A stretch of 34,208 nucleotides of DNA from the IMG/VR virus record IMGVR_UViG_2778261511_000013; one strand, written 5' to 3'. This stretch comes from a virus (taxonomy: Duplodnaviria; Heunggongvirae; Uroviricota; Caudoviricetes). A program made the translations under genes and the position numbers. Of the stretch, positions 1-34,208 are shown piece after piece. The notes beneath the pieces were generated by a model, which did not search any database, was not told the DNA's origin, and saw nothing but the letters and a program-made list of their open reading frames with translations. Position 1 is the first letter of the stretch, and each line of letters begins with the position of its first letter.

Positions 1-705
1 TCATATTAGAACCTCCCCGAGTAAACATTCCCAACGAAATTTCTTCAGTTTATATATTTCTAAATTATCCCTAATTATTCCATCCTGCTTTGCTTTATCG
101 GCCCAACGATTATGAGGATGTACAGTCCCAACTAACTGCCACCCAGCACCTTTTAAAGATGCGCCTGTTTCACTGCTTAGAGTATAGGTAATAATTTTTT
201 CTCCTCCCATCATTTTCCAGATTGTGCTACATCGACTAATCAGAAAGGAGCAAGTTCCTTTTGGAGATTTGTCACTGACACATAATCGTGTAATCTCTGC
301 CGTCACACCATCCATGTACGTTGCAGATACGGGATTTCCAACTATCGCTACACCAACCAATTCATCAGAATCTATGTGGTAGGCAGCTATAGCCCATCTG
401 CCCGAATTCCTTGACGTTGGTCGATGGTGTCGATGATAAATAGAAACAAATTCATTTGCTTTTTTTATCGTTATAGGTTTTACATATAGTAACTTCGCCA
501 AAATCCACACCTTGTAACATGATGGTAATATCATTACAACAATACAAAACTTATTGATTTTTAACAACCAATTATAATGCCTAACCCCCATAGCACTACT
601 TATCTTGTCTTCAAAAATCAGCTCGCATCCTGCACAGTTCAGCGCATTACGTTGTAGATCTGTGTTCTGGTCATTTGTTGACACACGTACATAGCCAATA
701 AGCAT
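1..705 (-). CDS. chimeric ORF: invertase N-terminus (~36 codons) fused in frame to an unrelated domain with GNAT-acyltransferase-like motifs (possible Mom-like modification enzyme or toxin)
   Basis: Open frame from ATG at 705 (SD CAGGGAG 8 nt upstream) to TGA at 3..1. Residues MLIGYVRVSTNDQNTDLQRNAL...IFEDK match the Hin/Gin/Pin serine-recombinase N-terminus, then similarity stops. Downstream ...ELVGVAIVG...RLCV..KSPKGTCSFLISRC...TYTLSSETGASLKGAGWQLVG resembles GNAT motifs. AT-rich linker at about 480-600. Confidence 0.4.
   Translation of the reverse strand: MLIGYVRVSTNDQNTDLQRNALNCAGCELIFEDKISSAMGVRHYNWLLKINKFCIVVMILPSCYKVWILAKLLYVKPITIKKANEFVSIYHRHHRPTSRNSGRWAIAAYHIDSDELVGVAIVGNPVSATYMDGVTAEITRLCVSDKSPKGTCSFLISRCSTIWKMMGGEKIITYTLSSETGASLKGAGWQLVGTVHPHNRWADKAKQDGIIRDNLEIYKLKKFRWECLLGEVLI
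598..705 (-). pseudogene. DNA invertase (Hin/Gin/Pin-family serine recombinase) N-terminal remnant; catalytic core and HTH absent
   Basis: Only about 36 aa including the YVRVST motif with the nucleophilic Ser are retained; no recombinase sequence follows. Confidence 0.6.
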
Positions 706-759
706 GGTAGATCTCCCTGACAAAAGCAGGGATGATGCCATTTGCTCGTTATTTCTACA

Positions 760-785
760 TTTTCATAAACGTTGGTTTGGGAGAA
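760..785. repeat. invertase crossover site (hix/gix-like 26-bp dyad), one boundary of the invertible tail-fibre segment
   Basis: TTTTCATAAACG-TT-GGTTTGGGAGAA; 20/26 identical to the reverse complement of the site at 2591-2616; resembles hixL TTCTTGAAAACCAAGGTTTTTGATAA as I recall it. Confidence 0.65.
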
Positions 786-1238
786 GGTTCGGCATTACCC
801 GTTGGTGTGCCTGTTCCGTGGCCTTCCGCCACTCCGCCAACAGGCTGGCTAAAATGCAATGGTGCGGCTTTTTCTGCTGAAGAATACCCGGAACTGGCAA
901 AGGTTTATCCGACAAATAAATTGCCTGATTTACGCGGTGAATTTATTCGTGGCTGGGATGACGGACGTGGAGTGGATGCCGGGCGACAATTATTATCTTC
1001 ACAGGGGGATGCAATAAGAAATATTGAGGGATTCGCAGATGGCGGAATCGGTATGTCTTTTGATGCAATCAGAGGGGCTTTTTACGATGCAGGAACACGA
1101 TCAGCGAGAATGCCGAATAACACAACTACTATAGACAAAACCGATGACCTTGGATTCGACGCCTCTCGTGTCGTGCCAACAGCTAATGAAAACCGTCCAC
1201 GTAACATCGCCTTTAATTATATTGTGAGGGCTGCATAA
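786..1238 (+). CDS. alternate tail-fibre C-terminal (variable) cassette, silent in the current orientation
   Basis: Frame is continuous through the crossover site (..NVGLGE|GSALPVGVPVPWP..); contains ..GWLKCNGAAFSAEEYPELAKVYP.., typical of Mu S / P2 H-type fibre C-termini; no independent start or SD; stop overlaps the Tfa start (TAATG at 1236-1240). Confidence 0.6.
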   Translation, partial: GSALPVGVPVPWPSATPPTGWLKCNGAAFSAEEYPELAKVYPTNKLPDLRGEFIRGWDDGRGVDAGRQLLSSQGDAIRNIEGFADGGIGMSFDAIRGAFYDAGTRSARMPNNTTTIDKTDDLGFDASRVVPTANENRPRNIAFNYIVRAA

Positions 1239-1831
1239 TGAAACCTGTTTTTGATGAAAATGGGCTGGCTACAGTGCCGGGTGATATGCGTTGTTTTTAT
1301 TATGATGCAGTAACGTCTGAATATACGGGCTGGTCTGATGAATATATTAATACTGGCGTAAGTATGCCCGCCTGTTCCACTGGTATTGACCCGGGCGAAT
1401 ACATTCCGGGGAAAGTGGCAGTATTTACGGGTAAGGGATGGAGCCATGAAGAAGACCACCGCAATAAGACTGTTTACTCAATCGAAAATGGCGCAGCTGT
1501 TACAGTGGATTATATCGGTGCCATCAAAGACGGTTATGTCACGATTTCAGCGTTAACGCCATACGATAAATGGGATGGTGAGAAATGGGTGACAGACACT
1601 GAGGCACAACACAGTGCCGCAGTAGACGCGGCAGAAGCACAGCGCCAGTCACTGATTGATGCAGCAATGGCTTCCATTAGTCTGATTCAGCTGAAATTAC
1701 AGGCCGGGCGGAAACTGACGCAGGCAGAAACAACCCGGCTTAACGCTGTGCTGGATTATATTGACGCGGTGACGGCAACAGATACCAGCACAGCGCCGGA
1801 CGTCATCTGGCCTGAACTGCCGGAGGCGTAG
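1238..1831 (+). CDS. tail fibre assembly protein (Tfa) for the alternate fibre cassette
   Basis: 197 aa; C-terminal ..LNAVLDYIDAVTATDTSTAPDVIWPELPEA matches the Tfa family signature; follows the fibre cassette. Confidence 0.75.
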   Translation: MKPVFDENGLATVPGDMRCFYYDAVTSEYTGWSDEYINTGVSMPACSTGIDPGEYIPGKVAVFTGKGWSHEEDHRNKTVYSIENGAAVTVDYIGAIKDGYVTISALTPYDKWDGEKWVTDTEAQHSAAVDAAEAQRQSLIDAAMASISLIQLKLQAGRKLTQAETTRLNAVLDYIDAVTATDTSTAPDVIWPELPEA

Positions 1832-2243
1832 GCCATTCAATATCTGGCGCACCGGAAGTATCGACCAGTTCCAGTGCGTCCAGATAATCCAGCCACAAAT
1901 TATATTGCGCCAGTTCCTCACCTTTCAGGCGACCAATCGCCGCTTTACCAGGCCATTGCTTACTGTTTATGTATTCGTTGACCTGATTAATCAATTGCTG
2001 CTTTTCCAGTTCGGCTGCGGCAATTTGTTCCTCATGAGTTGGCGGTGGAATATCAATCCATGCAGGCATTCCGTCGATGACACCTCTGTATTTTCCTTCT
2101 GGTGCTTCCTTCATAAATTCGGCGGCAACAGTGTCGTCAATTTCGATTCCATCATCGGGCCATTCACCGGATTCCTGATAAGCGATTTTAAGCTCCACAG
2201 GGAAAAACGCATTTTTATCGGCACTGAAAATATATTTCTGCAT
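1803..2243 (-). CDS. tail fibre assembly protein (Tfa) for the expressed fibre
   Basis: 146 aa; C-terminus ..YNLWLDYLDALELVDTSGAPDIEWPTPP is Tfa-like; convergent with the + strand Tfa as in Mu G and e14 P segments. Confidence 0.75.
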   Translation of the reverse strand: MQKYIFSADKNAFFPVELKIAYQESGEWPDDGIEIDDTVAAEFMKEAPEGKYRGVIDGMPAWIDIPPPTHEEQIAAAELEKQQLINQVNEYINSKQWPGKAAIGRLKGEELAQYNLWLDYLDALELVDTSGAPDIEWPTPPAVQAR

Positions 2244-2245
2244 TT

Positions 2246-2959
2246 CTACCGTCCTATCGAAATATAACTGAATCTGTATTGCTGTGAGATATCACTGGTT
2301 GCCACACGCCACGCTGAATTACTGATATGTTCAAAATTTACAGACAAAACCTGCGGGGCAGGATTCGACGGGTCTGACTGAACGGCATCAGACATAACAC
2401 TGACTGAAACCATCGGCTGATTAGGGAATGGTATAGGGAAGTGTCCACTGATAAAGCGGGTCGTGTTTCCTGAAAAAGTGCCAAACTGAACAATATATCC
2501 ACCTGGTAGCCTGAACCATCCCGAACCAGAAGCGAATGCTCCCATATCCGGTATCTGATTATCTCCTGTGCCCACATCCCTTTTCGCCGCTTCTCCTAAA
2601 CCAAGGTTTTCGAGAGCCGTTTTCACCGTGCCATCCGATTTGATATCGCCAAACGGATTCTTGCGGCTCAGGTATTCAACAGCAAACCCCGATCCCAGCA
2701 ATTCAACAAAACCGGGCAGATCACCATTATCAAGCACATCCCGTTGCGTTTTATCACTTACAAACTGGGCCAGAGCTGCAGCAATAAAGCTGGCCTGCCG
2801 AATAACCTTATTGACTTGCGCACTGGAGGCTTTCCCTGCTGTAAATCCAGATAAAAGCGCGGGCAACGCTTCCCATTCCTCCTGCGATATAACATTGGCA
2901 TTTCGATCCGTTGCAAACGCTTTAAAGTCATTTTTCGCCATCAGAGTAATACTCCCCAT
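2246..2959 (-). CDS. tail fibre protein (constant N-terminal part about 2617-2941, variable C-terminal part 2246-2590)
   Basis: 237-aa ORF downstream of the baseplate genes; crossover site lies within the gene at the GLGE motif; likely start is the ATG at 2941 (MAKNDF..), overlapping the upstream stop (TGATG). Confidence 0.65.
2591..2616. repeat. invertase crossover site (hix/gix-like dyad) inside the tail-fibre gene
   Basis: TTCTCCTAAACC-AA-GGTTTTCGAGAG; inverted relative to the 760-785 site; encodes LENLGLGE in the fibre frame. Confidence 0.65.
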
Positions 2960-3621
2960 GCTCCTACATCAAAACCACTGATGAATTCGTTATCCATATC
3001 AAAACCAAAAAATTTTGAGCCTTCCGATGGGGTTTCCACCGAAGGTGTTTCAATGCCACCCGCCCATACCCCGGCGGCTTTTACTGTGAGATACCCCTGT
3101 TTAATTGCCGCAATTAACTCACGCGATACATCTGAAATATCAGTATCAGGAAAGACCCAGACCGATATCGTCATGTCCTGGTTATCGACTATCTGCATTC
3201 GCAGTCCGGATCCTGCTGTTGCCGCGTCAAGAATTGCCGGAAGCGAATCATTCCGTCCGTCCCAGTTATTAATCGCAATCTTCGCTTTAAGGATGACACG
3301 ATAAGTTTCATCGCTGAGGTACATGTATCCGGAATCAGGATCGTATGGCCCCTGCCATACACCCTGATCATATCCAAGCCCGTCGGTATCCCAGCTGAAA
3401 TAGACACCTGAAATAGGCTGGCTGACAACACGGCTACGTCCGATCCACAATCCCAGAATGTCAAGTTGCACACCAACCGCAGAGTCAATATCAAATGCAG
3501 TAATCAGCCCTCTGGTGGCAGCCGCAACATCAATAAGCGGCCGGGTCATCAGATCAACATGTGCAAGAAATTTAGGTTTGGTGGCGTGGTAGTTCGTGAT
3601 TAGTTCGGTGTATTTGCTCAT
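2941..3621 (-). CDS. baseplate/tail protein (P2 gpI / Mu gp48-like)
   Basis: 226 aa between the baseplate J-like gene and the fibre; position and size; overlaps the upstream stop (ATGA at 3618-3621). Confidence 0.5.
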
Positions 3622-4817
3622 GACTCCACCGTTATAACGATATTTTCCGGGGTACAGGACGCAGATTCGTTGTATCTGATATCAATGTTTGATGACGACA
3701 AAGCCCCCGGGGATTTCCCAATCGTCAGTTCCTGAATATCGTAATAGCGTGCATTCCCGCCACTCACCACGCCAAGATTCGCCGGTGAGTAAATGCGACT
3801 TAAAAGGACCGAATCACCAATCATCAGACTATTGATATAGTCGGAAATAGCCTGCTGGATCTGCTGCCCTATCTGTGAGGTATAACCCGTAAAAACTTTT
3901 AATTTAATCCGGGCATAAACAGGCACATCACTGGAACGCGAAAATTTGATTACATGGGGATTGCCGTATTTATCCGGAACCGTAACGGATGTTGTACCGT
4001 GAGTGGCTGTTCCCTGGCCTTTATTCCCTCTGATAGCCTGAGCAATATCCGTCACATCACCGCCATCCACAATTACAGCAACAGAGTGTGGCGGTAACCC
4101 GTTACCGTCCTCCGAACCATTATCGTTTTCATAGAGTTTGTGGCGGGTTACACCGGTAACATTAGAAACAGCACCATTCAGTGCTTCAAATGGGGTTATT
4201 GATGGCAACGCAACACTTTGCGACTGTCGGATACGTAACTCCGCATCAGTTTCTGCCGGAGTGCCCACAGTAGCCGCAGCAGGATTGGTTACCGAAACCC
4301 AGCCACGGGTTGGCGTATTAATTTCAGTGATAGTTCCAGCCAGCGCCGCCACTGCACCACTGACGGAACATGTTGCGGTCACCATCACTGTACCATCCAC
4401 GCCGACCACCACTGAAGCAGGCAAACGCCATATCACATTATTACTGTCTTTCACGCTGCCATTAATGATGGTTGTTCCGGCAGTTCCTGTAAGAAGCAAA
4501 TCAACCGTAGAGTTCGTCGCGCCTTTACGTGAAATACCATTTATTTTCACGTTACTGGTCAGTGCAGCCCCATAGCCAGTTGCTGGTGAAAAACAGTTGT
4601 AGACAGTTATCGCCATATTATTGGCATCATGAATCGCCAGCGCCATCAGAGCCACCATCTGGCCGTCTTTGCTGTCCGGTTCGAGGTAGGCATCACTGCC
4701 ATAAATCTGCTGAAAATAGCTAATCAGGGTGCTGAGTATCGTCTGATAATCAGGCGCACTGATCCCCTCCGCGGTTACCTTTGCAGATAAACCGAGAGAA
4801 TCAAGGTTCAGAGCCAT
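3618..4817 (-). CDS. baseplate J-like protein (P2 gpJ / Mu gp47 family)
   Basis: 399 aa; size, synteny (W-like, J-like, I-like, fibre) and general resemblance to baseplate J. Confidence 0.6.
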   Translation of the reverse strand: MALNLDSLGLSAKVTAEGISAPDYQTILSTLISYFQQIYGSDAYLEPDSKDGQMVALMALAIHDANNMAITVYNCFSPATGYGAALTSNVKINGISRKGATNSTVDLLLTGTAGTTIINGSVKDSNNVIWRLPASVVVGVDGTVMVTATCSVSGAVAALAGTITEINTPTRGWVSVTNPAAATVGTPAETDAELRIRQSQSVALPSITPFEALNGAVSNVTGVTRHKLYENDNGSEDGNGLPPHSVAVIVDGGDVTDIAQAIRGNKGQGTATHGTTSVTVPDKYGNPHVIKFSRSSDVPVYARIKLKVFTGYTSQIGQQIQQAISDYINSLMIGDSVLLSRIYSPANLGVVSGGNARYYDIQELTIGKSPGALSSSNIDIRYNESASCTPENIVITVES

Positions 4818-5170
4818 TACGCCTCCGATGTAACAGTCGTTATTCCATAAAGAGTGTCGATTTCAGCGGAAAACATGACACGTCGGGTCGTGGTATCCAC
4901 CGTCGTATTGAAAGAGAGGATTGATTTAACGCCCTGCGTTTCGAGGATGCGCTTACGGATCGCCAGGTTGTAGGTTTCCGGCTTCTGCTTACCGAGTACG
5001 GACTGGATCCACGGAGTCCCCTCGGTGGTGTCGAGAAACCATTGCCCATACCACAATTCGAATCGCGTTTTTACCGCCTGCGCCACGGCCTCCGGTGAGT
5101 TAATCAGCCAGGTGTCATCACCGCTGCCAAAGGTGTAATCGCCATCGGCGTCTTCACGTCTGTATCGCAT
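4817..5170 (-). CDS. baseplate wedge protein (gp25/W-like)
   Basis: 117 aa immediately upstream of the J-like gene with ATGA overlap; canonical position. Confidence 0.5.
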   Translation of the reverse strand: MRYRREDADGDYTFGSGDDTWLINSPEAVAQAVKTRFELWYGQWFLDTTEGTPWIQSVLGKQKPETYNLAIRKRILETQGVKSILSFNTTVDTTTRRVMFSAEIDTLYGITTVTSEA

Positions 5171-5922
5171 CAGTTTACTCCGTCGGTATTGCTTCCACCG
5201 CGCTGAACACCACCATGAGTGTGCGTATCATCAATTGGCTTGCCGTTAGCCTTCACGCTACCCAAAAACTCAACAGCACCAGTGATTTTTGAAGCCACAC
5301 CAGAAACCACAGACCCCACCATGCCACCCATCCAGGTTAACAGGCCATGAATGGTTACTTTCTCAGAAAAATCAGCCAGAGGGGCAACCACATCAAGACC
5401 ACCCGGAGCGACAATTTTAATTTTCCTGGTATCAGGATTAAGCTCAAAATAGGTGCTGCCGTCATCACTACGCAACTGTGTGGCACTGGTATTAATACCG
5501 CTAATCTTCCTTGCCTGCGACTGGGGACCGACAATACAAAACGCATCCGATAAATCATGCATTCTGTCATCGACCGGCTCCTGTATCCCGCCGCTCTGCC
5601 ACCAGAAATCAATACAACGATCGGCAAAAATCATCAAACATTCATCACCGGCTTTAACTGGGAACGTTAGCGTGCATCCTCCGCCGCGCGGGAATACCAC
5701 TGGCACATCCACCAGCAATGGGTAATTTTGGGTAATGCGGTTGCCGTCATTATCCTTTTCAACCGAACGGATAGCAGGCTGCACAACTGCCGTCACCGCA
5801 TCAGGATCGAATGACTGAATAATGCCAGGCAAGGCGACACGGATCTGGTTCTTTGTTGTTTCCCGTTCAGATTTGAATGTTTCGGCAAGGTCGCCGCTGC
5901 GGGTCTGGTCAGATACGGCCAT
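5170..5922 (-). CDS. baseplate spike/assembly protein (gpV / Mu gp45-like)
   Basis: 250 aa; Gly/Val-rich C-terminal tip region; position before the W-like gene. Confidence 0.5.
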   Translation of the reverse strand: MAVSDQTRSGDLAETFKSERETTKNQIRVALPGIIQSFDPDAVTAVVQPAIRSVEKDNDGNRITQNYPLLVDVPVVFPRGGGCTLTFPVKAGDECLMIFADRCIDFWWQSGGIQEPVDDRMHDLSDAFCIVGPQSQARKISGINTSATQLRSDDGSTYFELNPDTRKIKIVAPGGLDVVAPLADFSEKVTIHGLLTWMGGMVGSVVSGVASKITGAVEFLGSVKANGKPIDDTHTHGGVQRGGSNTDGVN

Positions 5923-5937
5923 TTAGTAGGCTCCAGA

Positions 5938-5968
5938 AAGCAAAAAACCCGCCTGGTGGCGGGTTTGA
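5938..5968 (-). terminator. rho-independent terminator (likely bidirectional) ending the tail moron
   Basis: Minus strand AAACCCGCC-ACCA-GGCGGGTTT followed by TTTTTTG; + strand stem followed by TTTGATTTAT. Confidence 0.7.
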
Positions 5969-5983
5969 TTTATAAGAACTTCA

Positions 5984-6157: not shown

Positions 6158-6159
6158 AT

Positions 6160-6690: not shown

Positions 6691-6696
6691 ATTGTA

Positions 6697-27076: not shown

Positions 27077-27216
27077 ACGTCCTCCTTTTCCTGAGGTAGT
27101 GGTAACACCCCTGTTGGTGTTCTTTCACACCGGAGACACCATCGATTCCAGTAAGGCTGTCCTGGTCGAAAGCGATCGTCTTCCTTTCGCTCTCCACATC
27201 GATAACAGTGCTTCAT
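27043..27216 (-). CDS. NinD-like small zinc-ribbon protein
   Basis: 57 aa from ATG at 27216 (ATGA overlap with the MTase stop); [16 protein letters not shown] has two CxxC pairs. Confidence 0.5.
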
Positions 27217-28240: not shown

Positions 28241-28257
28241 GACTTCCCTCTCCCCCA

Positions 28258-28287
28258 AATAAAAAGGCCTGCGATTACCAGCAGGCC
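28258..28287 (-). terminator. tR2-like rho-independent terminator between the replication genes and the nin region
   Basis: Minus strand GGCCTGC-TGGTAATC-GCAGGCC followed by TTTTTATTT. Confidence 0.6.
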
Positions 28288-28313
28288 TGTTATTAGCTCA
28301 GTAATGTAGATGG

Positions 28314-29690
28314 TCATACGTCAGCCCCTTGTGCATATCGCCTGCCACGTGCAGCGGGTGCATTTGATGTTGTGCAAATCTGTCTGGCTTCATCCTGGTC
28401 ACATGCAACAAAGTGTCCGTTACAGAACCGCTGGTAAACCGTACCAAGCGAGCCAAAACGGTTTTTTGTCACAATGATTTCAGCAAATGGCGCGGCGCTA
28501 CTGTTCTCGTCATATACCGCTTCCCTATAGAGCATGATGATTGAGTCTGCGTCCTGTTCAATGCTTCCTGAATCACGCAAATCTGCGTTTGTCGGGCGTT
28601 TGTTTGGTCGCTTCTCAACATCGCGTGAAAGCTGACTCAGGGAGATAACAGGCGTTTTCAGGTCTTTCGCCATCGCCTTCAGGCTTCCTGAGATGTGAGC
28701 AATTGCGAGGTCGTTGCGATCTGCTTTCGGCTTCTCAATCAGGCCAAGATAATCCGCCATGATGAGTGACAGGTTTGGATTTTCCTGTTTGTGCCGTTCT
28801 GCGATTGAGCGTATTTCTTCGACCGATAACCGCGAGGCATCGACTACCCATACATCCAAATCTGCAAGCTGACTCATGCCGTTAGCAACGCGCGCCCAGC
28901 CTTCGTCATCCATCGATGCAGGATTTCGCAGCACGCTAACCGACATCCTCCCGGCGTTGGCAATACTTCGCTCTGCAATCTGCAATGCGCTCATTTCCAT
29001 CGAGAAAATCAATACTCCGCGCCGGACGTCAGAACCAGGAATAACACGACTTGCAACGCCTTCGGCAATCTTCAGCGCCAGTTCGGTTTTCCCCATACCA
29101 GGACGAGCAGCGATTATCACCAGGTCTTCCGCGTTCATCCCTCCGGTGATGGCATCAAGTTCTTCGATTCCGGTCTTCAGGGTATCTGACTCTTCTCCGT
29201 TCCTCAGACGCCTGTCAAGCGTGTCAGTGTAGTCGGTGATGATTTCCCCTAACCGTACAGGTTTTACCTCGTCACGTGGCTTTCTGATGGCTGAAAGACG
29301 CTTTACCAGCTCGTCCATCGCCTGACTCGATGTATCGATGGTTCCGTTCTGAATTGGTTCACGCATTTCATCCATGATTTCCAGCACCAGGCGGCGGTGA
29401 TAGTTATCCGCGACCATTCCGGCATATCCCTTCAGGTTTGCGGCACTCGGGCAGTTTTTGCTGGTCATCAGGATTGACGTGAAATGCTCCTCTCCGCACG
29501 CCTCGGCAACCATCAGCGCGTCGATTAGGTTTCTGTTTCTCGCCTGCTTGCGGATAACCTCGAAGGCTTTCCGGTAGAGCGGAATTGAAAACGCTTCCGG
29601 CTCCAGCGTTGCCAGAACGTCGCTGGCGGTTGGTGTTAATCCACCAATCAGCAGGCCACCGATAACGCTCGCTTCGATATCCTGTTTCAT
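28314..29690 (-). CDS. DnaB-family replicative helicase (P22 gp12-type)
   Basis: 458 aa; Walker A ..[12 protein letters not shown].., RecA-like C-terminal domain; follows the O-like initiator. Confidence 0.8.
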
Positions 29691-30508
29691 GCAATCCCCC
29701 TGTCTGCAAACTTCCCTTCCCGTACCCCCGTTAACGAGTCATCCCTCAGCAGGTAATCAAAATCGGCCGTCCAGCCCGTGTCGTTGTCTCCGAAGTAAAA
29801 CGGCTTGGCCTGATGCACAAACGCCCTGACATACGCTCTGAAACCGTCCACGTTTGGCGTTTTCAGTTGCGGAATGATTTTCTTCAGGCGGCGTTTTCGT
29901 TTCTCGTTGACCGCAACAGCGTGTGGAAGTCTGTCACCGACTTCGGTGTTGTAGGCGTTCAGGAAGGATTCGTAGTCGATTCGTTCTGCCTTGCGACGTT
30001 CAGGTTTAACCTGCCAATCGCCGCCCCCGTTAGGGGGTAAGGGGGTATTTGTATTTATTGTCTTTTGTATATTGTCTTTTGTGTTTAGCTGACTTGGCTT
30101 ATACCCATTAGCCGACTTGGCTAATGTTTTATTAGCTGTTTTAGCTAATGTTAAGCTGTCCTGGCTAATCCACTGAGAAACCACCTTGTTCACTCCGATT
30201 TTCACGCCATCAGCAATGAGGAATTTACGCTCAATAAGCTGGCGCTTGGCAGCGCAAACATGAGTGTGATGAATACCTGTCATGGCTGCTATCTGCGTGT
30301 TTGTGAGTCGATCCATCGGCTTATTGAATCCGTATGTCTTGCGCATGATAGCGAGCATCACCTTCAACTGCCGGACGGTTAAATCAGCCATCAGCAGACT
30401 GTCGGTAATCTCGTTAGCAACGCGCATGAAACCATCTTCGGTATCTGCCACGCGATGCTCCACGACCTCCAGTTGAGGCCTGTAATCAGCTAACTTAACG
30501 ACGCCCAT
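29687..30508 (-). CDS. replication initiator (lambda O / P22 gp18-like) with internal origin
   Basis: 273 aa; N-terminal O-like HTH region; ori iterons and AT-rich tract lie inside the coding sequence (repeat [15 protein letters not shown] in the protein). Confidence 0.7.
30046..30171. repeat. replication origin: four about 20-bp iterons (30085-30171) plus adjacent AT-rich tract (30046-30085)
   Basis: TTAGCTGACTTGGCTTATAC / TTAGCCGACTTGGCTAATGT / TTAGCTGTTTTAGCTAATGT / TAAGCTGTCCTGGCTAATCC, then TATTTGTATTTATTGTCTTTTGTATATTGTCTTTTG; same layout as ori-lambda. Confidence 0.75.
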
Positions 30509-30656
30509 GTTTCACTCCTGCTTTGGCTAGTCTGTAAACACCAACAAGGCGCTCTGCGAACGCCCTATTATTTGCTGCGGCTACCACTAATCCCTCAGGT
30601 GAATCAGGGTGTCGAATCTCTTCTTTTTCCTGGTATTTCTTACGACGTTTTGTCAT
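30489..30656 (-). CDS. small basic protein (55 aa) between cII and the O-like gene
   Basis: ATG at 30656 with SD AGGAG 6 nt upstream; [53 protein letters not shown]; 3' end overlaps the O-like start. Confidence 0.4.
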
Positions 30657-30690
30657 AATTACTCCTGTGGATTGATCCAGTCTTTCTACA

Positions 30691-30972
30691 TCAGGCCTCG
30701 AAGAATTCGCCGTTCTTCGGGGCTTTTTCTTTTGTCAGGTAATCGGCAAGCCGCTTAGTCAATTCAGCCATTTCATCGTCTTCGATTCCGTATTCCAGAA
30801 CAGCAAGCATCATGCTTACCTGCGAGAAGAAACCATTCTTCCATCGGCTTACCTGATATTCAGGAACCCCCATTGCTCGAGCGAATGTCTTCTGCCCCAT
30901 CAGTGCCAGTTTGTTCAGCAAGGCTGACTCGATGCGAGCCGCTTTCTTGCTTTTAGTTGCAATAGTACCCAT
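30691..30972 (-). CDS. cII: CII-like transcriptional activator
   Basis: 93 aa; ..ARIESALLNKLALMG..QVSRWK..FSQVSMMLAVLEYG.. parallels lambda CII; position after cro/nutR. Confidence 0.75.
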   Translation of the reverse strand: MGTIATKSKKAARIESALLNKLALMGQKTFARAMGVPEYQVSRWKNGFFSQVSMMLAVLEYGIEDDEMAELTKRLADYLTKEKAPKNGEFFEA

Positions 30973-31048
30973 AGATAATTTCCTTAATAATTAGATAGAG
31001 TTGGCTTCGCAAAGAAACGCAAAACCATAGAGATTTGTTTCTGGTAAT

Positions 31049-31080
31049 GCCCTTTTTCAGGGCGGGGATGTGTAAGAGCG
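31049..31080 (-). promoter_or_regulatory. nutR (boxA CGCTCTTAC + boxB GCCCTGAAAAAGGGC)
   Basis: Minus strand reads CGCTCTTACACATCCCCGCCCTGAAAAAGGGC just downstream of cro; near-identical to lambda nutR as recalled. Confidence 0.85.
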
Positions 31081-31088
31081 TTAATAAC

Positions 31089-31319
31089 TTAAGCGGACAT
31101 TAATTCAGGCCAGATGCTTTCCCAATCAACCGGATGAAGGTCTTTGCGAGTCACTTCACCATTGCTGAACTTCTCAATCAGAACACAAAGTGCTGCGCCC
31201 AATTCATGATTACGGCTAAGTGCTTTCCTCAAATAGCCGATAGAAGTTCCGCACTTGGTGGCAAATTCTCTCTGCTCTTCCAGTGAAAGGGAGTTCAGAT
31301 ACAAGCGGAGTTCTTCCAT
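31089..31319 (-). CDS. cro: Cro-like repressor (HTH)
   Basis: 76 aa; SD GGAAGGAG; divergent from cI across the operator region; ..CGTSIGYLRKALS.. HTH-like. Confidence 0.7.
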   Translation of the reverse strand: MEELRLYLNSLSLEEQREFATKCGTSIGYLRKALSRNHELGAALCVLIEKFSNGEVTRKDLHPVDWESIWPELMSA

Positions 31320-31329
31320 TTGCTATCTC

Positions 31330-31427
31330 CTTCCCGTTGTTGAATAAGATGAGTTTACCTGTAGGTAAAAAGCAAATCAATACCCATAGGTTATTTACCG
31401 GCAGGTAATCAAAGATAGAATTAAATC
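31330..31427. promoter_or_regulatory. oR/pR/pRM region: three 16-bp operator dyads TTTACCnnnnGGTAAA and divergent promoters
   Basis: Operators at 31354-31369 (TTTACCTGTAGGTAAA), about 31378-31393 (ATACCCATAGGTTAT) and 31394-31409 (TTTACCGGCAGGTAAT); pR -35 TTGATT / -10 TAAACT on the minus strand; pRM -10 TAGAAT (31416-31421) 6 nt before the cI ATG (leaderless-like). Confidence 0.65.
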
Positions 31428-32114
31428 ATGGATAAATACGAACAAAGACGACTAAGGCTGATAGAGATAAGAGACCGATTCTGTAATGGAAAGGCCTCAG
31501 AGTTGGCTCGTCGAATAGAAAGGGAACCATCATACGTTTCCAGAATGCTGTATCCGGAAGGAAAAAGCGGAAAAAAACGCATTGCTGACGATATGATGGA
31601 ACTAATTGAAAAATCTTTTAATCTCCCACGCGGATGGATGGACATGCTTGCAGATGGTAAAGCTGGAGCTACGGACCATCTTGAGTTTGCGGGTAACGTT
31701 CGTGCGGGTTTTGTTCCGGTAATTGGTGAAGCCGTTTTGGGAGTTGATGGCTCAGTGGATATGATTGAATTCAGATCCGGTTGGTTAAGCATCTACAGCG
31801 GCGATAAAGATGCTTACGGTCTGAAGGTTAAGGGTGACAGCATGTGGCCAAGGATTCAGTCAGGAGAATATGTTGTTATTGAACCAAATACGCCAGTACA
31901 TCCAGGTGATGAAGTCTTTGTAAGGACCAAAGACGGTCACAACATGATAAAGATCATGAACAAAACAAGAGACGGTGATTATCAGTTTAGTAGCATAAAC
32001 AGTGATCACCGCCCAATCACTCTTCCTGTTGAAGAAGTTGATAAAATGCATTTTGTTTCAGCTATTGTGAAACACACCAGGTACGTAGACCAGGACGATC
32101 TGCCAAAAGTTTGA
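31428..32114 (+). CDS. cI: CI-type prophage repressor (HTH + LexA/S24 autocleavage domain), not lambda immunity
   Basis: 228 aa; C-terminal ..GDSMWP..(S).. and ..GDEVFVRTKDGHNMIKI.. (Ser-Lys dyad domain); divergent to cro across the operators. Confidence 0.8.
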   Translation: MDKYEQRRLRLIEIRDRFCNGKASELARRIEREPSYVSRMLYPEGKSGKKRIADDMMELIEKSFNLPRGWMDMLADGKAGATDHLEFAGNVRAGFVPVIGEAVLGVDGSVDMIEFRSGWLSIYSGDKDAYGLKVKGDSMWPRIQSGEYVVIEPNTPVHPGDEVFVRTKDGHNMIKIMNKTRDGDYQFSSINSDHRPITLPVEEVDKMHFVSAIVKHTRYVDQDDLPKV

Positions 32115-32128
32115 GGATAAAGCAGCAA

Positions 32129-32425
32129 ATGTTTATACCCGGCATAGTAGTCGCTGTTGTAATCATCTGCTTCATATGGGCAAAGTTATCTCCTGTAAGC
32201 TCTAAGCATACAGCTGAACTCATGAGGAAGAAGAATCTTATACATGAGGCAGAATCGATAATTAAAAAGTTCAAAGGCATGTCATACGACGACATGTCAT
32301 CAGAGCAGATTGCTATGTATAAATGCGCCATTGAGCGCCTTGACTACTTAAACGGACTCAAACCAAAACACACCCCAGTAGAATCAAAATTGCCGCAATG
32401 GCCAAGCAATCCAAATAGCTTCTGA
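32129..32425 (+). CDS. small single-pass membrane protein in the cI operon (rex/sie position), unknown function
   Basis: ATG at 32129 with SD GAGGA; MFIPGIVVAVVIICFIWAKL.. N-terminal TM then a charged about 75-aa domain; followed by a terminator. Confidence 0.55.
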   Translation: MFIPGIVVAVVIICFIWAKLSPVSSKHTAELMRKKNLIHEAESIIKKFKGMSYDDMSSEQIAMYKCAIERLDYLNGLKPKHTPVESKLPQWPSNPNSF

Positions 32426-32435
32426 CATCTCCTTT

Positions 32436-32460
32436 CAGCCCGCAAAGCGGGCTTTTTTAT
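32436..32460 (+). terminator. rho-independent terminator ending the cI operon
   Basis: CAGCCCGC-AAA-GCGGGCT followed by TTTTTTAT. Confidence 0.8.
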
Positions 32461-32477
32461 ATCAATAAAAAAATTAA

Positions 32478-32600
32478 TTACCTGAAAATTCAAGCAGGTA
32501 AACTCTCACATCAATTTTATTTACCCATGGGTATAGACATGAGTTTTACCTGTAGGTATATTTTAAGCCATCAGAAGGACGCACTGACCACCATGAAGGT
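32478..32600. promoter_or_regulatory. oL/pL region with operator dyads
   Basis: TTTACCCATGGGTATA (32520-32535) and TTTACCTGTAGGTATA (32545-32560), plus a degenerate TTACCTG..CAGGTAA element at 32478-32501; immediately upstream of nutL and N. Confidence 0.55.
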
Positions 32601-32602
32601 GA

Positions 32603-32633
32603 CGCTCTTAAAAATTAAGCCCTGAAGAAGGGC
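32603..32633 (+). promoter_or_regulatory. nutL (boxA CGCTCTTA + boxB GCCCTGAAGAAGGGC)
   Basis: Matches lambda nutL as recalled; correct position upstream of N. Confidence 0.85.
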
Positions 32634-32805
32634 AGCATTCAAAGCAGAAGGCTTTGGGGTGTGGTGAAGGGTTCATGGATGGGAATATGTCGCACGTAAA
32701 GCGGCGAGGCCTGCGGAACTATTGCCGAATTGAAGTCGGCCGAAGCAGGTCGAAATGGGTCTCCCACCTACCACACCACCAAAGCTAACTGACAGGAGAA
32801 TCCAG

Positions 32806-33132
32806 ATGGATGCACAAACACGCCGCCGCGAACGTCGCGCAGAGAAACAGGCTCAATGGAAAGCAGCAAATCCCCTGTTGGTTGGGGTAAGCGCAAAACC
32901 AGTTAACCGCCCTATTCTCTCGCTGAATCGCAAACCGAAATCACGAGTAGAAAGCGCACTGAATCCGATAGACCTTACAGTGCTGGCTGAATACCACGAA
33001 CAGATTGAAAGCAACCTGCAACGTATTGAGCGCAAGAATCAGCGCACATGGTACAGCAAGCCACGCAGTGAAATGGGTGTGACTTGTGTTGGTCGCCAGA
33101 AAATGAAATTAGGCAGCAAACCACTTATTTGA
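32806..33132 (+). CDS. N: antiterminator N (lambda-type)
   Basis: MDAQTRRRERRAEKQAQWKAANPLLVGVSAKPVNRPILSLNRKPKSRVESALNPIDLTVLAEYH.. matches lambda N including the Arg-rich motif; the ORF-track start at 32755 is an upstream extension. Confidence 0.9.
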   Translation: MDAQTRRRERRAEKQAQWKAANPLLVGVSAKPVNRPILSLNRKPKSRVESALNPIDLTVLAEYHEQIESNLQRIERKNQRTWYSKPRSEMGVTCVGRQKMKLGSKPLI

Positions 33133-33140
33133 GGTGATAT

Positions 33141-33227
33141 ATGGAAGAAGAATTTGAAGAGTTCGAAGAGCATCCTCAGGATGTGATGGAACAATACCAG
33201 GACTATCCGTATGACTACGACTATTGA
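33141..33227 (+). CDS. tiny acidic ORF (28 aa), MEEEFEEFEEHPQDVMEQYQDYPYDYDY
   Basis: ATG 8 nt after the N stop with SD GAGGTGA; extremely acidic and aromatic; may correspond to the small ORF annotated downstream of N in lambda. Confidence 0.4.
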   Translation: MEEEFEEFEEHPQDVMEQYQDYPYDYDY

Positions 33228-33299
33228 TAAAAATCAATGGTGTGGACAATACGAACGACGGCAATGATTTCCAGAGAACTTGGTAAACAGAACAACAAG

Positions 33300-33325
33300 G
33301 CTGCCTGATGGCAGCTTTTATTTTT
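33300..33325 (+). terminator. tL1-like rho-independent terminator
   Basis: GCTGCC-TGAT-GGCAGC followed by TTTTATTTTT. Confidence 0.75.
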
Positions 33326-33444
33326 GCCATAAAAAACAGAATAAACACTGCTCTGTGTATTCATTCCAACGAGTGAATACACGGAGCAATGTCGCTCGTA
33401 ACTAAACAGGAGCCGACTTGTTCTGATTATTGGAAATCTTCTTT

Positions 33445-33472
33445 GCCCTCCAGTGTGAGGGCGATTTTTTAT
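33445..33472 (+). terminator. second rho-independent terminator before ea10
   Basis: GCCCTC-CAGTGT-GAGGGC followed by GATTTTTTAT. Confidence 0.7.
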
Positions 33473-33490
33473 CTATGAGGATATGAATAG

Positions 33491-33859
33491 ATGTCAAACA
33501 TCAAAAAATACATCATTGATTACGACTGGAAAGCATCAATAGAAATTGAAATCGACCATAACGTAATGACAGAGGAAAAACTTCACCAGATTAATAATTT
33601 CTGGTCAGACTCTGAATACCGACTCAATAAACACGGCTCTGTATTAAATGCTGTATTAATCATGCTGGCGCAACATGCTCTGCTTATAGCAATTTCAAGC
33701 GACTTAAATGCATATGGTGTTGTGTGTGAGTTCGACTGGAATGATGGAAATGGTCAGGAAGGATGGCCTCCAATGGATGGTAGCGAAGGAATAAGAATTA
33801 CCGATATCGATACATCAGGAATATTTGATTCAGATGATATGACTATCAAAGCCGCCTGA
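33491..33859 (+). CDS. ea10: Ea10-like early protein
   Basis: 122 aa, same length and position (N-side of cIII) as lambda ea10; SD GAGGA. Confidence 0.55.
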   Translation: MSNIKKYIIDYDWKASIEIEIDHNVMTEEKLHQINNFWSDSEYRLNKHGSVLNAVLIMLAQHALLIAISSDLNAYGVVCEFDWNDGNGQEGWPPMDGSEGIRITDIDTSGIFDSDDMTIKAA

Positions 33860-33931
33860 GCGCAGCGTTACCGCATACCAATAACGCTTCACTCGAGGCG
33901 TTTTTCGTTATGTATAAATAAGGAGCACACC

Positions 33932-34096
33932 ATGCAATATGCCATTGCAGGGTGGCCTGTTGCTGGCTGCCCTTCCGAATCTTTACTTGAACGAATCACC
34001 CGTAAATTACGTGACGGATGGAAACGCCTTATCGACATACTTAATCAGCCAGGAGTCCCAAAGAATGGATCAAACACTTATGGCTATCCAGACTAA
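33932..34096 (+). CDS. cIII: CIII (FtsH inhibitor)
   Basis: 54 aa by hand translation: MQYAIAGWPVAGCPSESLLERITRKLRDGWKRLIDILNQPGVPKNGSNTYGYPD; SD AAGGAG; matches lambda CIII as recalled. Confidence 0.8.
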   Translation: MQYAIAGWPVAGCPSESLLERITRKLRDGWKRLIDILNQPGVPKNGSNTYGYPD

Positions 34097-34208
34097 ATTC
34101 ACTATCGCCACTTTTATTGGCGATGAAAAGATGTTTCGTGAAGCCGTCGACGCTTATAAAAAATGGATATTAATGCTGAAACTGAGATCAAGCAAAAGCA
34201 TTCACTAA
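34065..34208 (+). CDS. kil: Kil (host-killing / FtsZ inhibitor)
   Basis: 47 aa MDQTLMAIQTKFTIATFIGDEKMFREAVDAYKKWILMLKLRSSKSIH overlapping the cIII 3' end, as in lambda; stop at the window edge. Confidence 0.65.
   Translation: MDQTLMAIQTKFTIATFIGDEKMFREAVDAYKKWILMLKLRSSKSIH

Follow-up and report, generated by a model that had tools for sequence, protein, structure and literature searches.

A patchwork lambda-family prophage of Escherichia coli with particle genes probably of the SEN34-type contractile-tailed group

The window analysed here, a 34,208-nt stretch of viral DNA, joins lambda-like control genes to the genes of a tailed particle, which raises the question of where its parts come from and whether they belong to one phage. 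The reading that we favour, at a probability of about 0.9, is that of a patchwork lambda-family temperate prophage of E. coli, the particle genes of which are of the SEN34-type contractile-tailed group and not of phage Mu. The phage is placed in the lambda supercluster. Read in reverse, the window stretches from kil as far as the right end of the virion gene set, with the recombination and integration genes outside (Table 1). The gene order is canonical for lambdoid phages, the late-operon ORFs are intact throughout, and the window has nut sites, operators, iterons, terminators, tRNA genes and a cIII thermometer.

A local blastn search with lambda (NC_001416) aligned 5,334 nt (15.6% of the window, 93.2% identity) as seven strong discrete blocks and one weak cII match. 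The remainder had no lambda match, and lambda coverage of the tiles at 1-22000 was 0%. Tile by tile, the identity to lambda is thus not uniformly low, and the "highly mosaic lambdoid genome" of the first-pass annotation is borne out by discrete lambda blocks with those of other donors between them. Near-identity to lambda had been claimed for N, nutL, nutR, cIII, kil, ea10, NinB/E/F/G, the phosphatase, S and R; it holds for most of them (amino acid identities: cIII 100%, ea10 and kil 99%, S, NinB and NinG 98%, NinI 97%, NinF 96%, NinE 93%, N 92%, R 91%) but not for N, at 85.6% of nucleotides, nor for the hybrid R. The operators, cI, cro, replication genes, Q, Rz/Rz1 and morphogenetic genes do differ from lambda as stated: there was no tblastn match in lambda for cI, cro, Q or any virion gene from the tail fibre to TerL, and the O-like initiator (42% over half its length) and cII (49%) are distant. 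The control genes appear to be stitched from several known phages, each non-lambda block having a known donor type. Block identities, with boundaries mapped, are 94-99% for lambda/mEp043/HK544, ~90-93% for Sf6, 87% for SfV and 93-98% for 611R5, these names denoting the nearest database relatives searched, not demonstrated parents.

At the early-left end, N is the HK544/mEp043 allele (98.0% nt and 99% aa to HK544 vs 85.6% and 92% to lambda) and keeps the lambda arginine-rich N-terminus. The nutL sequence is one that we take to be the lambda nutL, the region aligning to lambda; boxA and boxB of both nut sites are exact lambda sequences. Between N and ea10, where ral and sieB had been called missing and two terminators remaining, both terminators were found (that at 33443-33464 corresponds to a site annotated as lambda tL2a-like in Sf6) and sieB is absent, but ral persists as a remnant, with 40 nt of its 5' end and ~58 nt of its 3' end kept on either side of a 103-nt deletion. 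HK544 likewise has the order N-orf28-ral without sieB. The proposed heteroimmunity of cI/cro is confirmed as being of mEp043 type (98.7% nt over 30647-32669), with no lambda tblastn match. Exact TACC-N4-GGTA sites occur four times in the window vs 0.25 expected, all within OR and OL; a degenerate third OR operator may lie between the two OR palindromes, as judged by inspection and homology only. The replication block (28286-30846) is 96.7% identical to HK544. Its description as P22-type fits the architecture of O-like initiator plus DnaB-like helicase, the latter 90% identical to its P22 counterpart, but the initiator reaches only 51%, and the nearest donor type is HK544/HK97.

The nin genes from ninI to ninD are 95.6-97.3% identical to lambda in nucleotides (84-98% aa). 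The ninH gene is cleanly absent, lambda 43044-43232 having no counterpart in the window, and the ninC position holds an MT-A70 methyltransferase gene instead, the best phage nucleotide match of which is just 74% (Erwinia phage vB_EhrS_59). Q, correctly described as non-lambda, is of Q21 type and matches solved Q21 chains over all 162 residues (6JNX_P, 1.9e-109; 6P18_P, 6e-109). Homology and inspection place PR' (TTGACA at 24969-24964), qut and tR' (a stem plus T-run at about 24929-24885) at approximate positions. Both tRNA genes lie downstream of tR'; in Sf6, a Q21-type Q is likewise followed by tR' and a tRNA-Asn/Thr pair, annotated there as "similar to phage 21".

In the lysis cassette, S is 97-100% identical to lambda in each 60-nt bin, whereas R combines a lambda-type 5' third with an SfV-type remainder. 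Along sliding identity and runs of informative lambda/SfV sites, 38 of 40 are lambda-type at 24183-24057 and 55 of 72 SfV-type at 24054-23690; therefore, the mosaic junction that had been placed between R and Rz lies inside R, near 24057/24054. Rz and Rz1, rightly called non-lambda, have no lambda match and are 84% and 74% identical to SfV proteins (87% nt over 23237-24161); their genes overlap in a LysB/LysC-like layout, making this an SfV-type spanin pair. As a separate observation, the previously unannotated antisense gene adjoining terS, with its predicted ADP-ribosyltransferase fold, is the best side lead of this analysis.

The SfV-type spanins and 3' part of R bear on the reading of the element as an SfV-like phage, i.e., a lambdoid backbone with a Mu-type contractile tail. 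The tail is indeed predicted to be contractile, since the sheath matches solved sheaths of XM1 (7KH1, 1.9e-40) and Pam3 (8HDR, 1.2e-23), and SEN34, a plaque-forming phage with a lambda-like genome, is a myovirus by electron microscopy (PMC5261728). The "Mu-like" part of the claim fell: the virion module is colinear with that of Salmonella phage SEN34, and its identity to E. coli phage vB_EcoM-611R5 is 93-98%. None of the ~30 virion ORFs is truncated, and their identity to the SEN34 counterparts is 62-96% (68-90% for the wedge and spike genes at 2941-5922, which are 98-100% identical to 611R5; 62-92% for the hub region and tape measure at 6697-11018; 69-96% for the head genes at 13769-18803). 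SEN34 covers 52% of the window in nucleotides, SfV 3.1%, confined to the fibre tip and lysis genes, and Mu 0.3%. In tblastn against Mu and SfV at E up to 10, the sheath, tube, tape-measure, hub, wedge, portal and capsid found no credible match, the only exceptions being TerL against Mu gp28 (29% over 220 aa, E 0.001) and the fibre tip against SfV orf21 (49%). Apart from a Mu-F domain in one head protein, the Pfam families (DUF3383, KPP10_Orf10, E217_GP41, Pam3_gp18, Dit_like and DUF2612 in the tail) are not the Mu set, and Pfam family searches found no homologue of the Mu N DNA-circulation protein. A low-GC insert occupies a variable slot of the baseplate cluster, used likewise in eight E. coli genomes. 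It matched phrog_18554 (function not known, 5.3e-60) and weakly PycTM, with no Pfam or NCBIfam match, and none of 50,697 phage records matched it in nucleotides; membrane helices are predicted for its 176-aa protein.

The only Mu-like items, namely what is left of a dead Gin/Pin gene, the invertible segment of the fibre and a Mom-like gene, lie at the left end and in Mu order. In ORF 1-705, a Gin/Pin-type serine invertase is reduced to its first 36 codons (87% aa identity with Mu Gin, over 39 aa) and continues in frame into a complete XF1762-family/Mom-like domain (about 483-28; NCBIfam NF045478 XF1762_fam, 5.6e-50, model positions 2-143 of 143; phrog_1384 Mom-like, 1.7e-38; Pfam matches to the N-terminus of Resolvase and, weakly, to Mom). 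An internal start may lie at 534-532, which is consistent with the family N-terminus. The same junction occurs in six E. coli chromosomes, and PGAP annotates the 705-nt gene. The crossover pattern has just two matches in the window, inverted relative to each other (chance expectation 0); between these 19-nt sites the segment is inverted relative to 611R5, the match over 1197-2609 having the opposite orientation to its flanks. The fibre joins a constant N-terminus (2959-2610; 69% identical to the SEN34 fibre) to a variable C-terminus within this segment, and the silent cassette Sv' is 45-59% identical to the fibre tips of 611R5 and CP101920. These items would favour an SfV-like phage, but in view of the tail results above that reading is very improbable.

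Two further readings concern the integrity of the element. A misjoining of separate lambdoid and myovirus prophages during assembly might be suspected because the relatives switch abruptly at about 21934-23237 (the 611R5 match stops inside terS, at 21934) and because the closest isolated phages, of 611R5 type, have a non-lambdoid early region. However, over 6696-27066 the window is colinear at 97.5% with a complete E. coli chromosome, CP101920, and therefore the same nin-Q-lysis-terS-virion join exists independently; more than 12 other complete genomes cover 78-85% of 10000-34208, and SEN34 itself joins lambdoid early genes to this virion module. An assembly chimera is thus extremely improbable. 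Some decay is evident from the truncated invertase and the ral deletion and, together with the loss of ninH and the position of the same left-end sequence in a heavily degraded prophage of strain PK8568, might indicate a prophage that no longer forms particles. Against this, the three lesions hit non-essential accessory functions only, the genes for lysis, Q, replication and immunity are undamaged, and the full-length virion genes resemble those of a plaque-forming phage; we regard a defective element as unlikely, while giving it some weight.

Table 1. Features of the 34,208-nt window.
Feature	Position	Strand	Basis or remark
Gin/Pin-XF1762 fusion ORF	1-705	-	invertase codons at 705-598
Left crossover site, pix/gix-like	767-785	-	TTCTCCCAAACCAACGTTT
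Alternative fibre C-terminal cassette Sv'	786-1238	+	silent; Pfam Collar (phage tail collar domain) 3.9e-15
Alternative fibre assembly protein Tfa'	1238-1831	+	Caudo_TAP 1.4e-26; 95% aa 611R5
Tail-fibre assembly protein, expressed orientation	1803-2243	-	Caudo_TAP 1.2e-34; 99% aa 611R5
Tail fibre	2246-2959	-	Gp53-like_C
Right crossover site	2591-2609	+	TTCTCCTAAACCAAGGTTT
Baseplate gene	2941-3621	-	DUF2612
Wedge gene	3618-4817	-	Baseplate_J
117-aa wedge protein	4817-5170	-	
Central spike	5170-5922	-	Pfam; GpV apex motif
Low-GC (40%) insert, 59 aa + 176 aa	5984-6690	-	composition
117-aa protein, hub region	6697-7050	-	
Baseplate hub	7050-8117	-	E217_GP41 (weak); phrog_196 baseplate hub 2e-88
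Plug	8120-8422	-	Pam3_gp18
Dit-like protein	8422-9009	-	Dit_like
Tape measure	9009-11018	-	PhageMin_Tail
Tail assembly chaperone	11175-11627	-	Phage_TAC_15
Tail tube	11631-12071	-	KPP10_Orf10 4.8e-60
Tail sheath	12082-13227	-	DUF3383 5.2e-101; phrog_205 tail sheath
Neck/tail terminator	13231-13839	-	Phage_tail_terminator_9
Head-completion/head genes	within 13769-18803	-	incl. 129 aa, 184 aa, DUF4054, 73 aa
Major capsid	15332-16273	-	Major_capside 6.6e-88
Cement protein	16285-16791	-	XM1_gp53/Phage_cement
DUF2213 protein	16795-18015	-	DUF2213
Head morphogenesis protein	18030-18803	-	Phage_Mu_F 2e-17
Portal	18655-20121	-	Phage_portal_3 3.6e-105
TerL	20121-21743	-	95% aa SEN34
TerS	21746-22297	-	66% aa 611R5, 99% CP101920; Terminase_2 6.1e-40 in the terminase genes
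Antisense 182-aa gene	22317-22865	+	divergent from terS; predicted ADP-ribosyltransferase fold
70-aa ORF	22998-23210	-	
Rz1-like lipoprotein	23164-23508	-	lipobox LSGC
Rz-like protein	23327-23719	-	
Endolysin R, hybrid	23703-24179	-	91% aa lambda R, 93% SfV R
Lambda block: S, most of R, orf-64 region	23728-24727		lambda 45944-44945; 93.7% nt
Holin S, lambda type	24163-24486	-	98% aa lambda S
tRNA-Thr(TGT)	24729-24804	-	ARAGORN, Rfam
tRNA-Asn(GTT)	24810-24884	-	ARAGORN, Rfam
PR', qut, tR'	24885-24975	-	alignment to Sf6 region annotated phage-21-like
Q, Q21 type, 162 aa	24976-25464	-	PF06530 8.8e-25
ninI phosphatase, lambda type	25455-26126	-	
Lambda block: ninI	25462-26117		97.3% nt
ninG, lambda type	26123-26734	-	
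Lambda block: ninG/F/E/D	26123-27218		95.6% nt
ninF, lambda type	26727-26897	-	
ninE, lambda type	26894-27076	-	
ninD, lambda type	27043-27234	-	
Adenine methyltransferase, ninC position	27213-27803	-	MT-A70 2.2e-25; PADLOC MTase_II 2.5e-70
ninB, lambda type	27800-28258	-	98.6% nt, 98% aa lambda
Lambda block: ninB	27800-28317		98.6% nt
tR2-like terminator	28265-28288		terminator scan; just upstream of ninB
DnaB-like helicase	28314-29690	-	99% aa HK544, 90% P22 gp12
O-like initiator	29687-30508	-	Phage_rep_O; 98% aa HK544, 51% P22 gp18, 42% lambda O
Four ori iterons	30087-30169		inside initiator gene
53-aa ORF	30495-30656	-	HK97 gp53-like
cII	30691-30972	-	100% aa mEp043
oop-type terminator	30693-30725	opposite cII	terminator scan
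nutR	31049-31080	-	boxA CGCTCTTA, boxB GCCCTGAAAAAGGGC
cro	31089-31319	-	99% aa mEp043
OR operators	31356-31367, 31396-31407	.	TACC-N4-GGTA palindromes
cI repressor	31428-32114	+	100% aa mEp043; Peptidase_S24 (S24 peptidase domain)
104-aa ORF co-transcribed with cI	32111-32425	+	95% aa mEp043
Terminator after cI and 104-aa ORF	32437-32453	+	terminator scan
OL operators	32522-32533, 32547-32558	+	within 32480-32633
PL-like promoter	32534-32562	+	
Lambda block: nutL, N	32569-33107		85.6% nt
nutL	32604-32633	+	CGCTCTTAAAAATTAAGCCCTGAAGAAGGGC
N antiterminator, 107 aa	32807-33132	+	ATG at 32807
Lambda block: orf28/ral 5'	33116-33266		94.7% nt
orf28	33142-33228	+	three-way alignment, lambda and HK544
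ral remnant	33212-33308	+	same alignment; frame shifted
Lambda block: ral 3', ea10, cIII, kil	33243-34208		lambda 34152-33187; 98.0% nt
Two intrinsic terminators, leftward operon	33297-33318, 33443-33464	+	terminator scan
ea10, lambda type	33491-33859	+	
cIII thermoregulator RNA	33919-33977	+	RF01804, 88.5 bits
cIII, lambda type	33932-34096	+	
kil, lambda type	34065-34208	+	

On homology to characterised parts, the element would operate as follows. A repressor of mEp043 specificity would bind the TACC-N4-GGTA operators of OR and OL; on induction, N, with its lambda arginine-rich motif, would act at the lambda-identical nutL and nutR. The HK97/HK544-type initiator may bind the four iterons in its own gene and load the phage DnaB-like helicase, while the Q21-type antiterminator would load at PR' and take RNA polymerase past tR' and the two tRNA genes. 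Transcription would then proceed through lambda-type S, hybrid R and the SfV-type overlapped spanins, cross the antisense accessory gene and its bidirectional terminator, and continue from terS to the tail fibre. The fibre tip lies in a Gin/Pin-type invertible segment; as the segment's own invertase is destroyed, switching would depend on one provided in trans.

The mosaic itself would have arisen, as is usual, by recombination between lambdoid prophages in the same host. Crossovers probably fell in part in shared homologous sequence, namely within R, in the oop region at the 3' end of cII and in the nutL region; donor matches overlap at 30647-30846 (HK544 and mEp043) and 32560-32669 (lambda, HK544, Sf6 and mEp043). 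The differences in the nin region are clean whole-gene indels. Junctions inside functional cassettes, as first proposed, do exist, the R/Rz placement aside, and they are normal for lambdoid phages. Calling the lambdoid/myovirus combination uncommon was overstated: a search of 5,426 complete E. coli genomes found 309 with at least 80% of the virion module's 10.8-kb core. The SEN34 particle-gene group is already described, and the element is an ordinary lambda-family patchwork.

Read in reverse, the window follows the canonical lambdoid map: kil-cIII-ea10-(ral remnant)-N, cI and cro-cII-O-helicase-nin-Q-tRNAs, then S-R-Rz/Rz1-terS-terL-portal-head-neck-sheath-tube-tape measure, and finally baseplate-fibre-(invertible segment)-invertase stump-Mom-like gene. 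Missing from this order are the genes for recombination and integration, which lie beyond the right edge. Between about 1800 and 31300 the minus strand carries nearly all long ORFs, and from 31428 onwards they are on the plus strand; the GC skew is negative throughout, and stop codons are present at both ends. The window was compared by local blastn and tblastn with lambda, P22, SfV, Mu, SEN34, vB_EcoM-611R5, mEp043, HK544, Sf6 and two E. coli prophage regions. In total, 5334 nt (15.6%) align to lambda at 93.2% by blastn, as seven discrete blocks of 151-1096 nt with 85.6-98.6% identity, which are shared substrate for recombination with lambda; every 2-kb tile over 1-22000 had zero lambda coverage. 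The gene order overall is that of lambda, and S, the 5' part of R, ninI/G/F/E/D, ninB, the nut sites, orf28, ea10, cIII with its thermometer and kil are shared at 94-100%, whereas the remaining 84% (virion genes, Q, Rz/Rz1, O/P, cI/cro/operators, rex, sieB, ninC and ninH) has no lambda match. The first-pass annotation had named the lambda-type blocks correctly, since the blocks align, boxA-boxB of the nut sites is exact (CGCTCTTA precedes each boxB) and Rfam recognises the lambda cIII thermoregulator; the tile-by-tile identity was thus not uniformly low.

Coordinates of the blocks and features, with the closest match or family of each
Feature	Position	Strand	Match or description
Invertase stump fused to Mom-like domain	1-705	-	about 38% GC; fusion junction at 598/599
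19-nt pix/gix-like crossover site	767-785	-	inverted relative to the other site
19-nt pix/gix-like crossover site	2591-2609	+	inverted relative to the other site
Segment inverted with respect to its flanks	1197-2609		compared with 611R5
Virion module	2590-21934		93-97.6% nt to vB_EcoM-611R5, 606R2, 683R1 and MS20659 prophage
Low-GC gene pair	5984-6690	-	40% GC; 59 aa and 176-aa predicted membrane protein
Sheath; tube; chaperone; terminator			DUF3383; KPP10_Orf10; Phage_TAC_15; Phage_tail_terminator_9 (Pfam)
Baseplate and spike proteins			Dit_like; Pam3_gp18 plug; E217_GP41 hub (weak); GpV-apex-motif spike; Baseplate_J; DUF2612 (Pfam)
Portal and head proteins			Phage_portal_3; Mu-F domain protein; DUF2213; E217/Pam3/XM1-type cement protein; PF09950 capsid (Pfam)
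terS	21746-22297	-	611R5-type match ends inside, at 21934
Stem-loop	about 22968-22991		perfect 10-bp stem, GAAGCTCCTT-ATCA-AAGGAGCTTC
S and most of R	23728-24727		93.7% to lambda (blastn)
tRNA-Thr(TGT) and tRNA-Asn(GTT)	24729-24884	-	directly downstream of late terminator tR'
ninI	25462-26117		97.3% to lambda (blastn)
ninG/F/E/D	26123-27218		95.6% to lambda (blastn)
MT-A70 adenine methyltransferase	27213-27803	-	in place of ninC
ninB	27800-28317		98.6% to lambda (blastn)
Replication module	28286-30846		96.7% nt to HK544
Four ori iterons	30087-30169		within the initiator gene (Phage_rep_O)
Donor overlap, cII 3' end/oop region	30647-30846		HK544 and mEp043 both match
cII-cro-cI-orf-OL	30647-32669		98.7% nt to mEp043
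boxB of nutR	31049-31063		exact lambda boxB
cro	31089-31319	-	divergent from cI
cI	31428-32114	+	divergent from cro
Donor overlap, nutL region	32560-32669		matches from four phages
nutL and N	32569-33107		85.6% to lambda (blastn)
boxB of nutL	32619-32633		exact lambda boxB
orf28 and ral 5'	33116-33266		94.7% to lambda (blastn)
ral remnant	33212-33308	+	frameshift leaves an 18-codon ORF
ral 3', ea10, cIII, kil	33243-34208		98.0% to lambda (blastn)

The immunity region is heteroimmune with respect to lambda, as had been proposed, and can now be assigned to the mEp043 type: cI and cII are 100% identical to the mEp043 proteins, Cro is 99% identical, and the product of the small gene that follows cI 95%. 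Palindromes of the form TACC-N4-GGTA occur only in OR and OL, flanking cI (4 sites against 0.25 expected); another operator pattern, TTACC-N5-GGTAW, gave only chance-level matches and was discarded in favour of the N4 spacing. N had been described as near-identical to lambda. The protein is 92% identical to lambda N, but at the nucleotide level the identity to lambda is as low as 85.6%, and the gene is instead the HK544/mEp043 allele at 98%. The same annotation considered ral and sieB missing, with two terminators left behind. Both terminators and the absence of sieB stood, whereas ral is present as a remnant: a three-way alignment showed that its first 40 nt and last approximately 58 nt are kept around a 103-nt internal frameshifting deletion. 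The lambda blastn matches on either side of this deletion overlap by 24 nt (33243-33266), a hint in the sequence that short similar stretches may have flanked the deleted part of ral. The absence of sieB need not be a deletion scar, because HK544, to which the N-orf28-ral stretch is 98% identical, likewise carries N-orf28-ral without sieB.

Replication genes had been called P22-type, and this holds for the architecture, in which a phage DnaB-family helicase stands in place of lambda P. The closest relative, however, is of the HK97/HK544 type: the helicase is 99% identical to that of HK544 and 90% to P22 gp12, and the initiator is 98% identical to that of HK544, only 51% to P22 gp18 and 42% to lambda O. 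The matches to different donors overlap at the cII/oop and nutL junctions, which is the trace that recombination in conserved linker sequence would be expected to leave. mEp043, HK544/HK97 and Sf6/21 represent the donor types of the regulatory blocks; all have non-contractile tails and unrelated virion modules, and none has this combination of blocks. While the parts and their order are read directly from the DNA, we infer the circuit that they would form (repression, antitermination, replication, late operon) from their near-identity to characterised parts.

In the nin region, ninH is cleanly absent and ninC is replaced by the MT-A70 methyltransferase gene, for which the closest phage sequence, from Erwinia phage vB_EhrS_59, is only 74% identical at the nucleotide level; this is an unusual allele for an E. 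coli nin region. The expectation of a non-lambda Q was right. The protein belongs to PF06530 and matches the solved Q21 structures 6P18/6JNX over all 162 residues (E about 1e-109), and the gene is followed by a TTGACA promoter, the tR' stem-loop, tRNA-Asn and tRNA-Thr, as in Sf6, where a contiguous S-tRNA-Q-ninI arrangement, annotated as phage-21-like, matches at 92.9%. Both tRNAs would be transcribed only once Q21 antitermination has occurred. S, R, Rz/Rz1 and then terS through to the fibre are all on the minus strand. In agreement with the non-lambda Rz/Rz1 noted previously, the spanins are of the SfV type (84% and 74% aa); the two overlap, Rz carrying a TM helix and Rz1 an LSGC lipobox. The junction had been placed between R and Rz, which is not its position: among sites that differ between lambda and SfV in R, 38 of 40 are lambda-type over 24183-24057, and 55 of 72 are SfV-type over 24054-23690, so that the crossover lies within R, at about codon 42.

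A further correction concerns the tail, which had been described as contractile and Mu-like. The virion module is colinear with genes 2-26 of Salmonella phage SEN34 at 76-85% nucleotide identity by blastn (71-86% per 2-kb tile over 2700-21800), and 27 consecutive virion proteins are 62-96% identical to those of SEN34 with the order kept (tblastn). The sheath matches the solved sheaths of XM1 and Pam3, and the tail is therefore taken to be contractile, the electron microscopy being that of SEN34 only. A relationship of the module to Mu or SfV was rejected. When E values of up to 10 were allowed in tblastn, TerL (29% over 220 aa to Mu gp28, E 0.001) and the fibre tip (SfV orf21) alone among the virion proteins had matches in these phages, and blastn gave nothing credible. 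Sheath and tube would correspond to gpL and gpM of Mu (orf11/orf12 of SfV); in neither phage did the sheath have a tblastn match below E=1, and the sole match of the tube (E 0.36) fell in an unrelated region of SfV. With the Mu baseplate set (DNA-circulation protein N, P, gp45, gp46, gp47, gp48) the phage shares the generic Baseplate_J domain alone, and its proteins had no match in Mu 26208-31458; the Pfam families of sheath and tube differ. At the nucleotide level, coverage of the window is 0.3% for Mu and 3.1% for SfV, the SfV share being confined to the lysis genes and the fibre tip. SfV thus shares with this phage the idea of lambdoid control of a contractile tail, together with Rz/Rz1 and R, but its virion proteins are unrelated in sequence. 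A contractile tail is not enough to call a phage Mu-like, tempting as that label was; the general interpretation of a mosaic lambdoid phage with a myovirus virion was right.

This combination has already been described, as SEN34 was published as genetically lambda-like, a myovirus by electron microscopy and the prototype of a new lambda-like cluster (PMC5261728). SEN34 (Brunovirus SEN34) likewise joins lambdoid early genes to the same colinear virion module, but its immunity, Q and lysis genes differ, its replication is of the lambda P type, it has no invertible fibre segment, and it carries other genes in the variable baseplate slot. It aligns to 52.0% of the window at 80.5%, about 42% overall, an approximate figure as the window is part of a genome. 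By the ICTV convention, phages of one genus are at least about 70% identical in nucleotide sequence across the full genome; on this approximate estimate the phage would fall outside a genus shared with SEN34. The arrangement had been considered uncommon, which is an overstatement, as 309 of 5426 complete E. coli genomes (about 6%) carry at least 80% of 11000-21800 at high identity. A search for literature on SEN34 as a lambda supercluster and on the vB_EcoM-6xxR phages found only PMC5261728 and a table entry in PMC12945033.

The nearest virion modules are those of vB_EcoM-611R5, 606R2, 683R1 and a prophage of strain MS20659. This group shares with the window the invertible fibre segment, in the opposite orientation, and its crossover sites, but its early region is non-lambdoid (DNA polymerase, VapE, DEAD helicase), and its terS 5' end, spanins, holin and Q are unlike those of the window. 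Since the match stops inside terS and the module is joined there to a non-lambdoid early region, the exchange boundary lies within terS. Judged by these comparisons, the module evidently moves as a unit. An artificial joining of unrelated sequences during assembly could also produce such a mosaic; this was excluded, because a complete chromosome spans the same joins. The prophage at thrW/proA of E. coli QA-1986 630 (NZ_CP101920, hereafter CP101920) is colinear at 97.5% over 6696-27066, from the virion and terS through the gene with the predicted ADP-ribosyltransferase (ART) fold, SfV-type spanins, R, S, tRNAs and Q21 to ninI/G/F/E, and so runs across the nin-Q-lysis-terS-virion joins. It differs from the window in cI (714 nt) and cro (201 nt), both of lambda size, in having sieB, in its ninB region, fibre tips and baseplate-slot genes, and in an IS66 after its invertase remnant. 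Among complete E. coli genomes, coverage of 10000-34208 reaches 85% at most.

The left end parallels S-U-U'-S'-gin-(com)-mom of Mu, with fibre, assembly protein, inverted alternative assembly protein plus fibre tip, invertase and Mom-like gene in this order. The Sv/Tfa and Sv'/Tfa' cassettes are opposed, and the segment is bounded by the inverted crossover sites, which were located through BLAST breakpoints and then a pattern search, an inverted-repeat finder with default seed having missed them. Its inversion relative to 611R5 shows directly that the segment flips in this lineage. Gene by gene, the Mom-like gene of the Mu arrangement is present, and the Gin/Pin-type invertase survives as a 36-codon N-terminal stump (87% aa identity with Mu Gin across 39 aa) that continues in frame into an entire XF1762-family/Mom-like domain. 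The fusion junction is common to six E. coli chromosomes, in which PGAP annotates one 234-aa protein. When the Mom-like protein was searched against the Mu genome by tblastn (E<1e-3), Mu Mom was not matched, and family profiles alone recognise the protein; a PADLOC assignment to SduA (E 0.005) was dropped as too weak. Din-family invertases can act in trans. As the cognate invertase is destroyed, the switch would be frozen here unless such an enzyme, e.g., Pin of e14, were supplied in trans.

Among the accessory genes, the plus-strand 182-aa gene with the predicted ART fold (22317-22865) is separated from the terS start by 20 nt and runs antisense to the late operon. It matched no Pfam, NCBIfam or PADLOC family, and its own family, phrog_30882, comprises 49 clusters, all labelled 'hypothetical'. 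An AlphaFold model built from 38 homologues reached a pLDDT of 92.2, and R94, S/T111 and E156 are invariant in the family. Members adjoin a Terminase_2-type terS in otherwise unrelated enterobacterial prophages, including one of Pantoea whose head module differs and in which the homologue occupies the same position. Pfam run on all 38 members and a profile search of PDB sequences gave no match to known ARTs, and the ART idea, supported by fold comparison, therefore stays at the level of the fold. Tentatively, and at somewhat less than even odds, the gene may be the founding member of a family of phage ADP-ribosyltransferases that is so far unannotated. If so, its antisense orientation could give it a role in the lysogen, whether in defence, in conversion or as an anti-defence enzyme. 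The stem-loop between this gene and a convergent 70-aa ORF is, by its sequence, likely a bidirectional terminator. The late transcript would have to cross both the convergent accessory gene and this stem-loop, and the Q-modified polymerase would be expected to read through, as at other accessory genes in lambdoid late operons.

The low-GC gene pair is inserted at a variable position of the baseplate cluster, with the hub genes on one side and the spike on the other. A search of 50,697 phage records, distant mode included, gave no nucleotide match to the insert (5966-6696), which 8 of the 5426 complete E. coli genomes carry, at 100% in strain MS20659, inside its 611R5-type prophage. An assignment of the 176-aa protein to PycTM (PADLOC, E about 3e-4) was dropped as too weak. 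Together with the ART-fold gene and the Mom-like/XF1762 fusion, this membrane-protein insert is the accessory material likeliest to repay experiments.

The mosaic itself is nothing categorically new but a new combination of a known, published and fairly common kind. Its value as a discovery is small, modular mosaicism of lambdoid phages being textbook knowledge and the lambdoid phage with a SEN34-type myovirus virion both published and found in about 6% of genomes. Its practical value is that of a coordinate-level example, with junctions in conserved sequence (R, cII/oop, nutL), clean replacements of whole genes in nin, and one virion module common to lambdoid and non-lambdoid, polymerase-encoding early regions.
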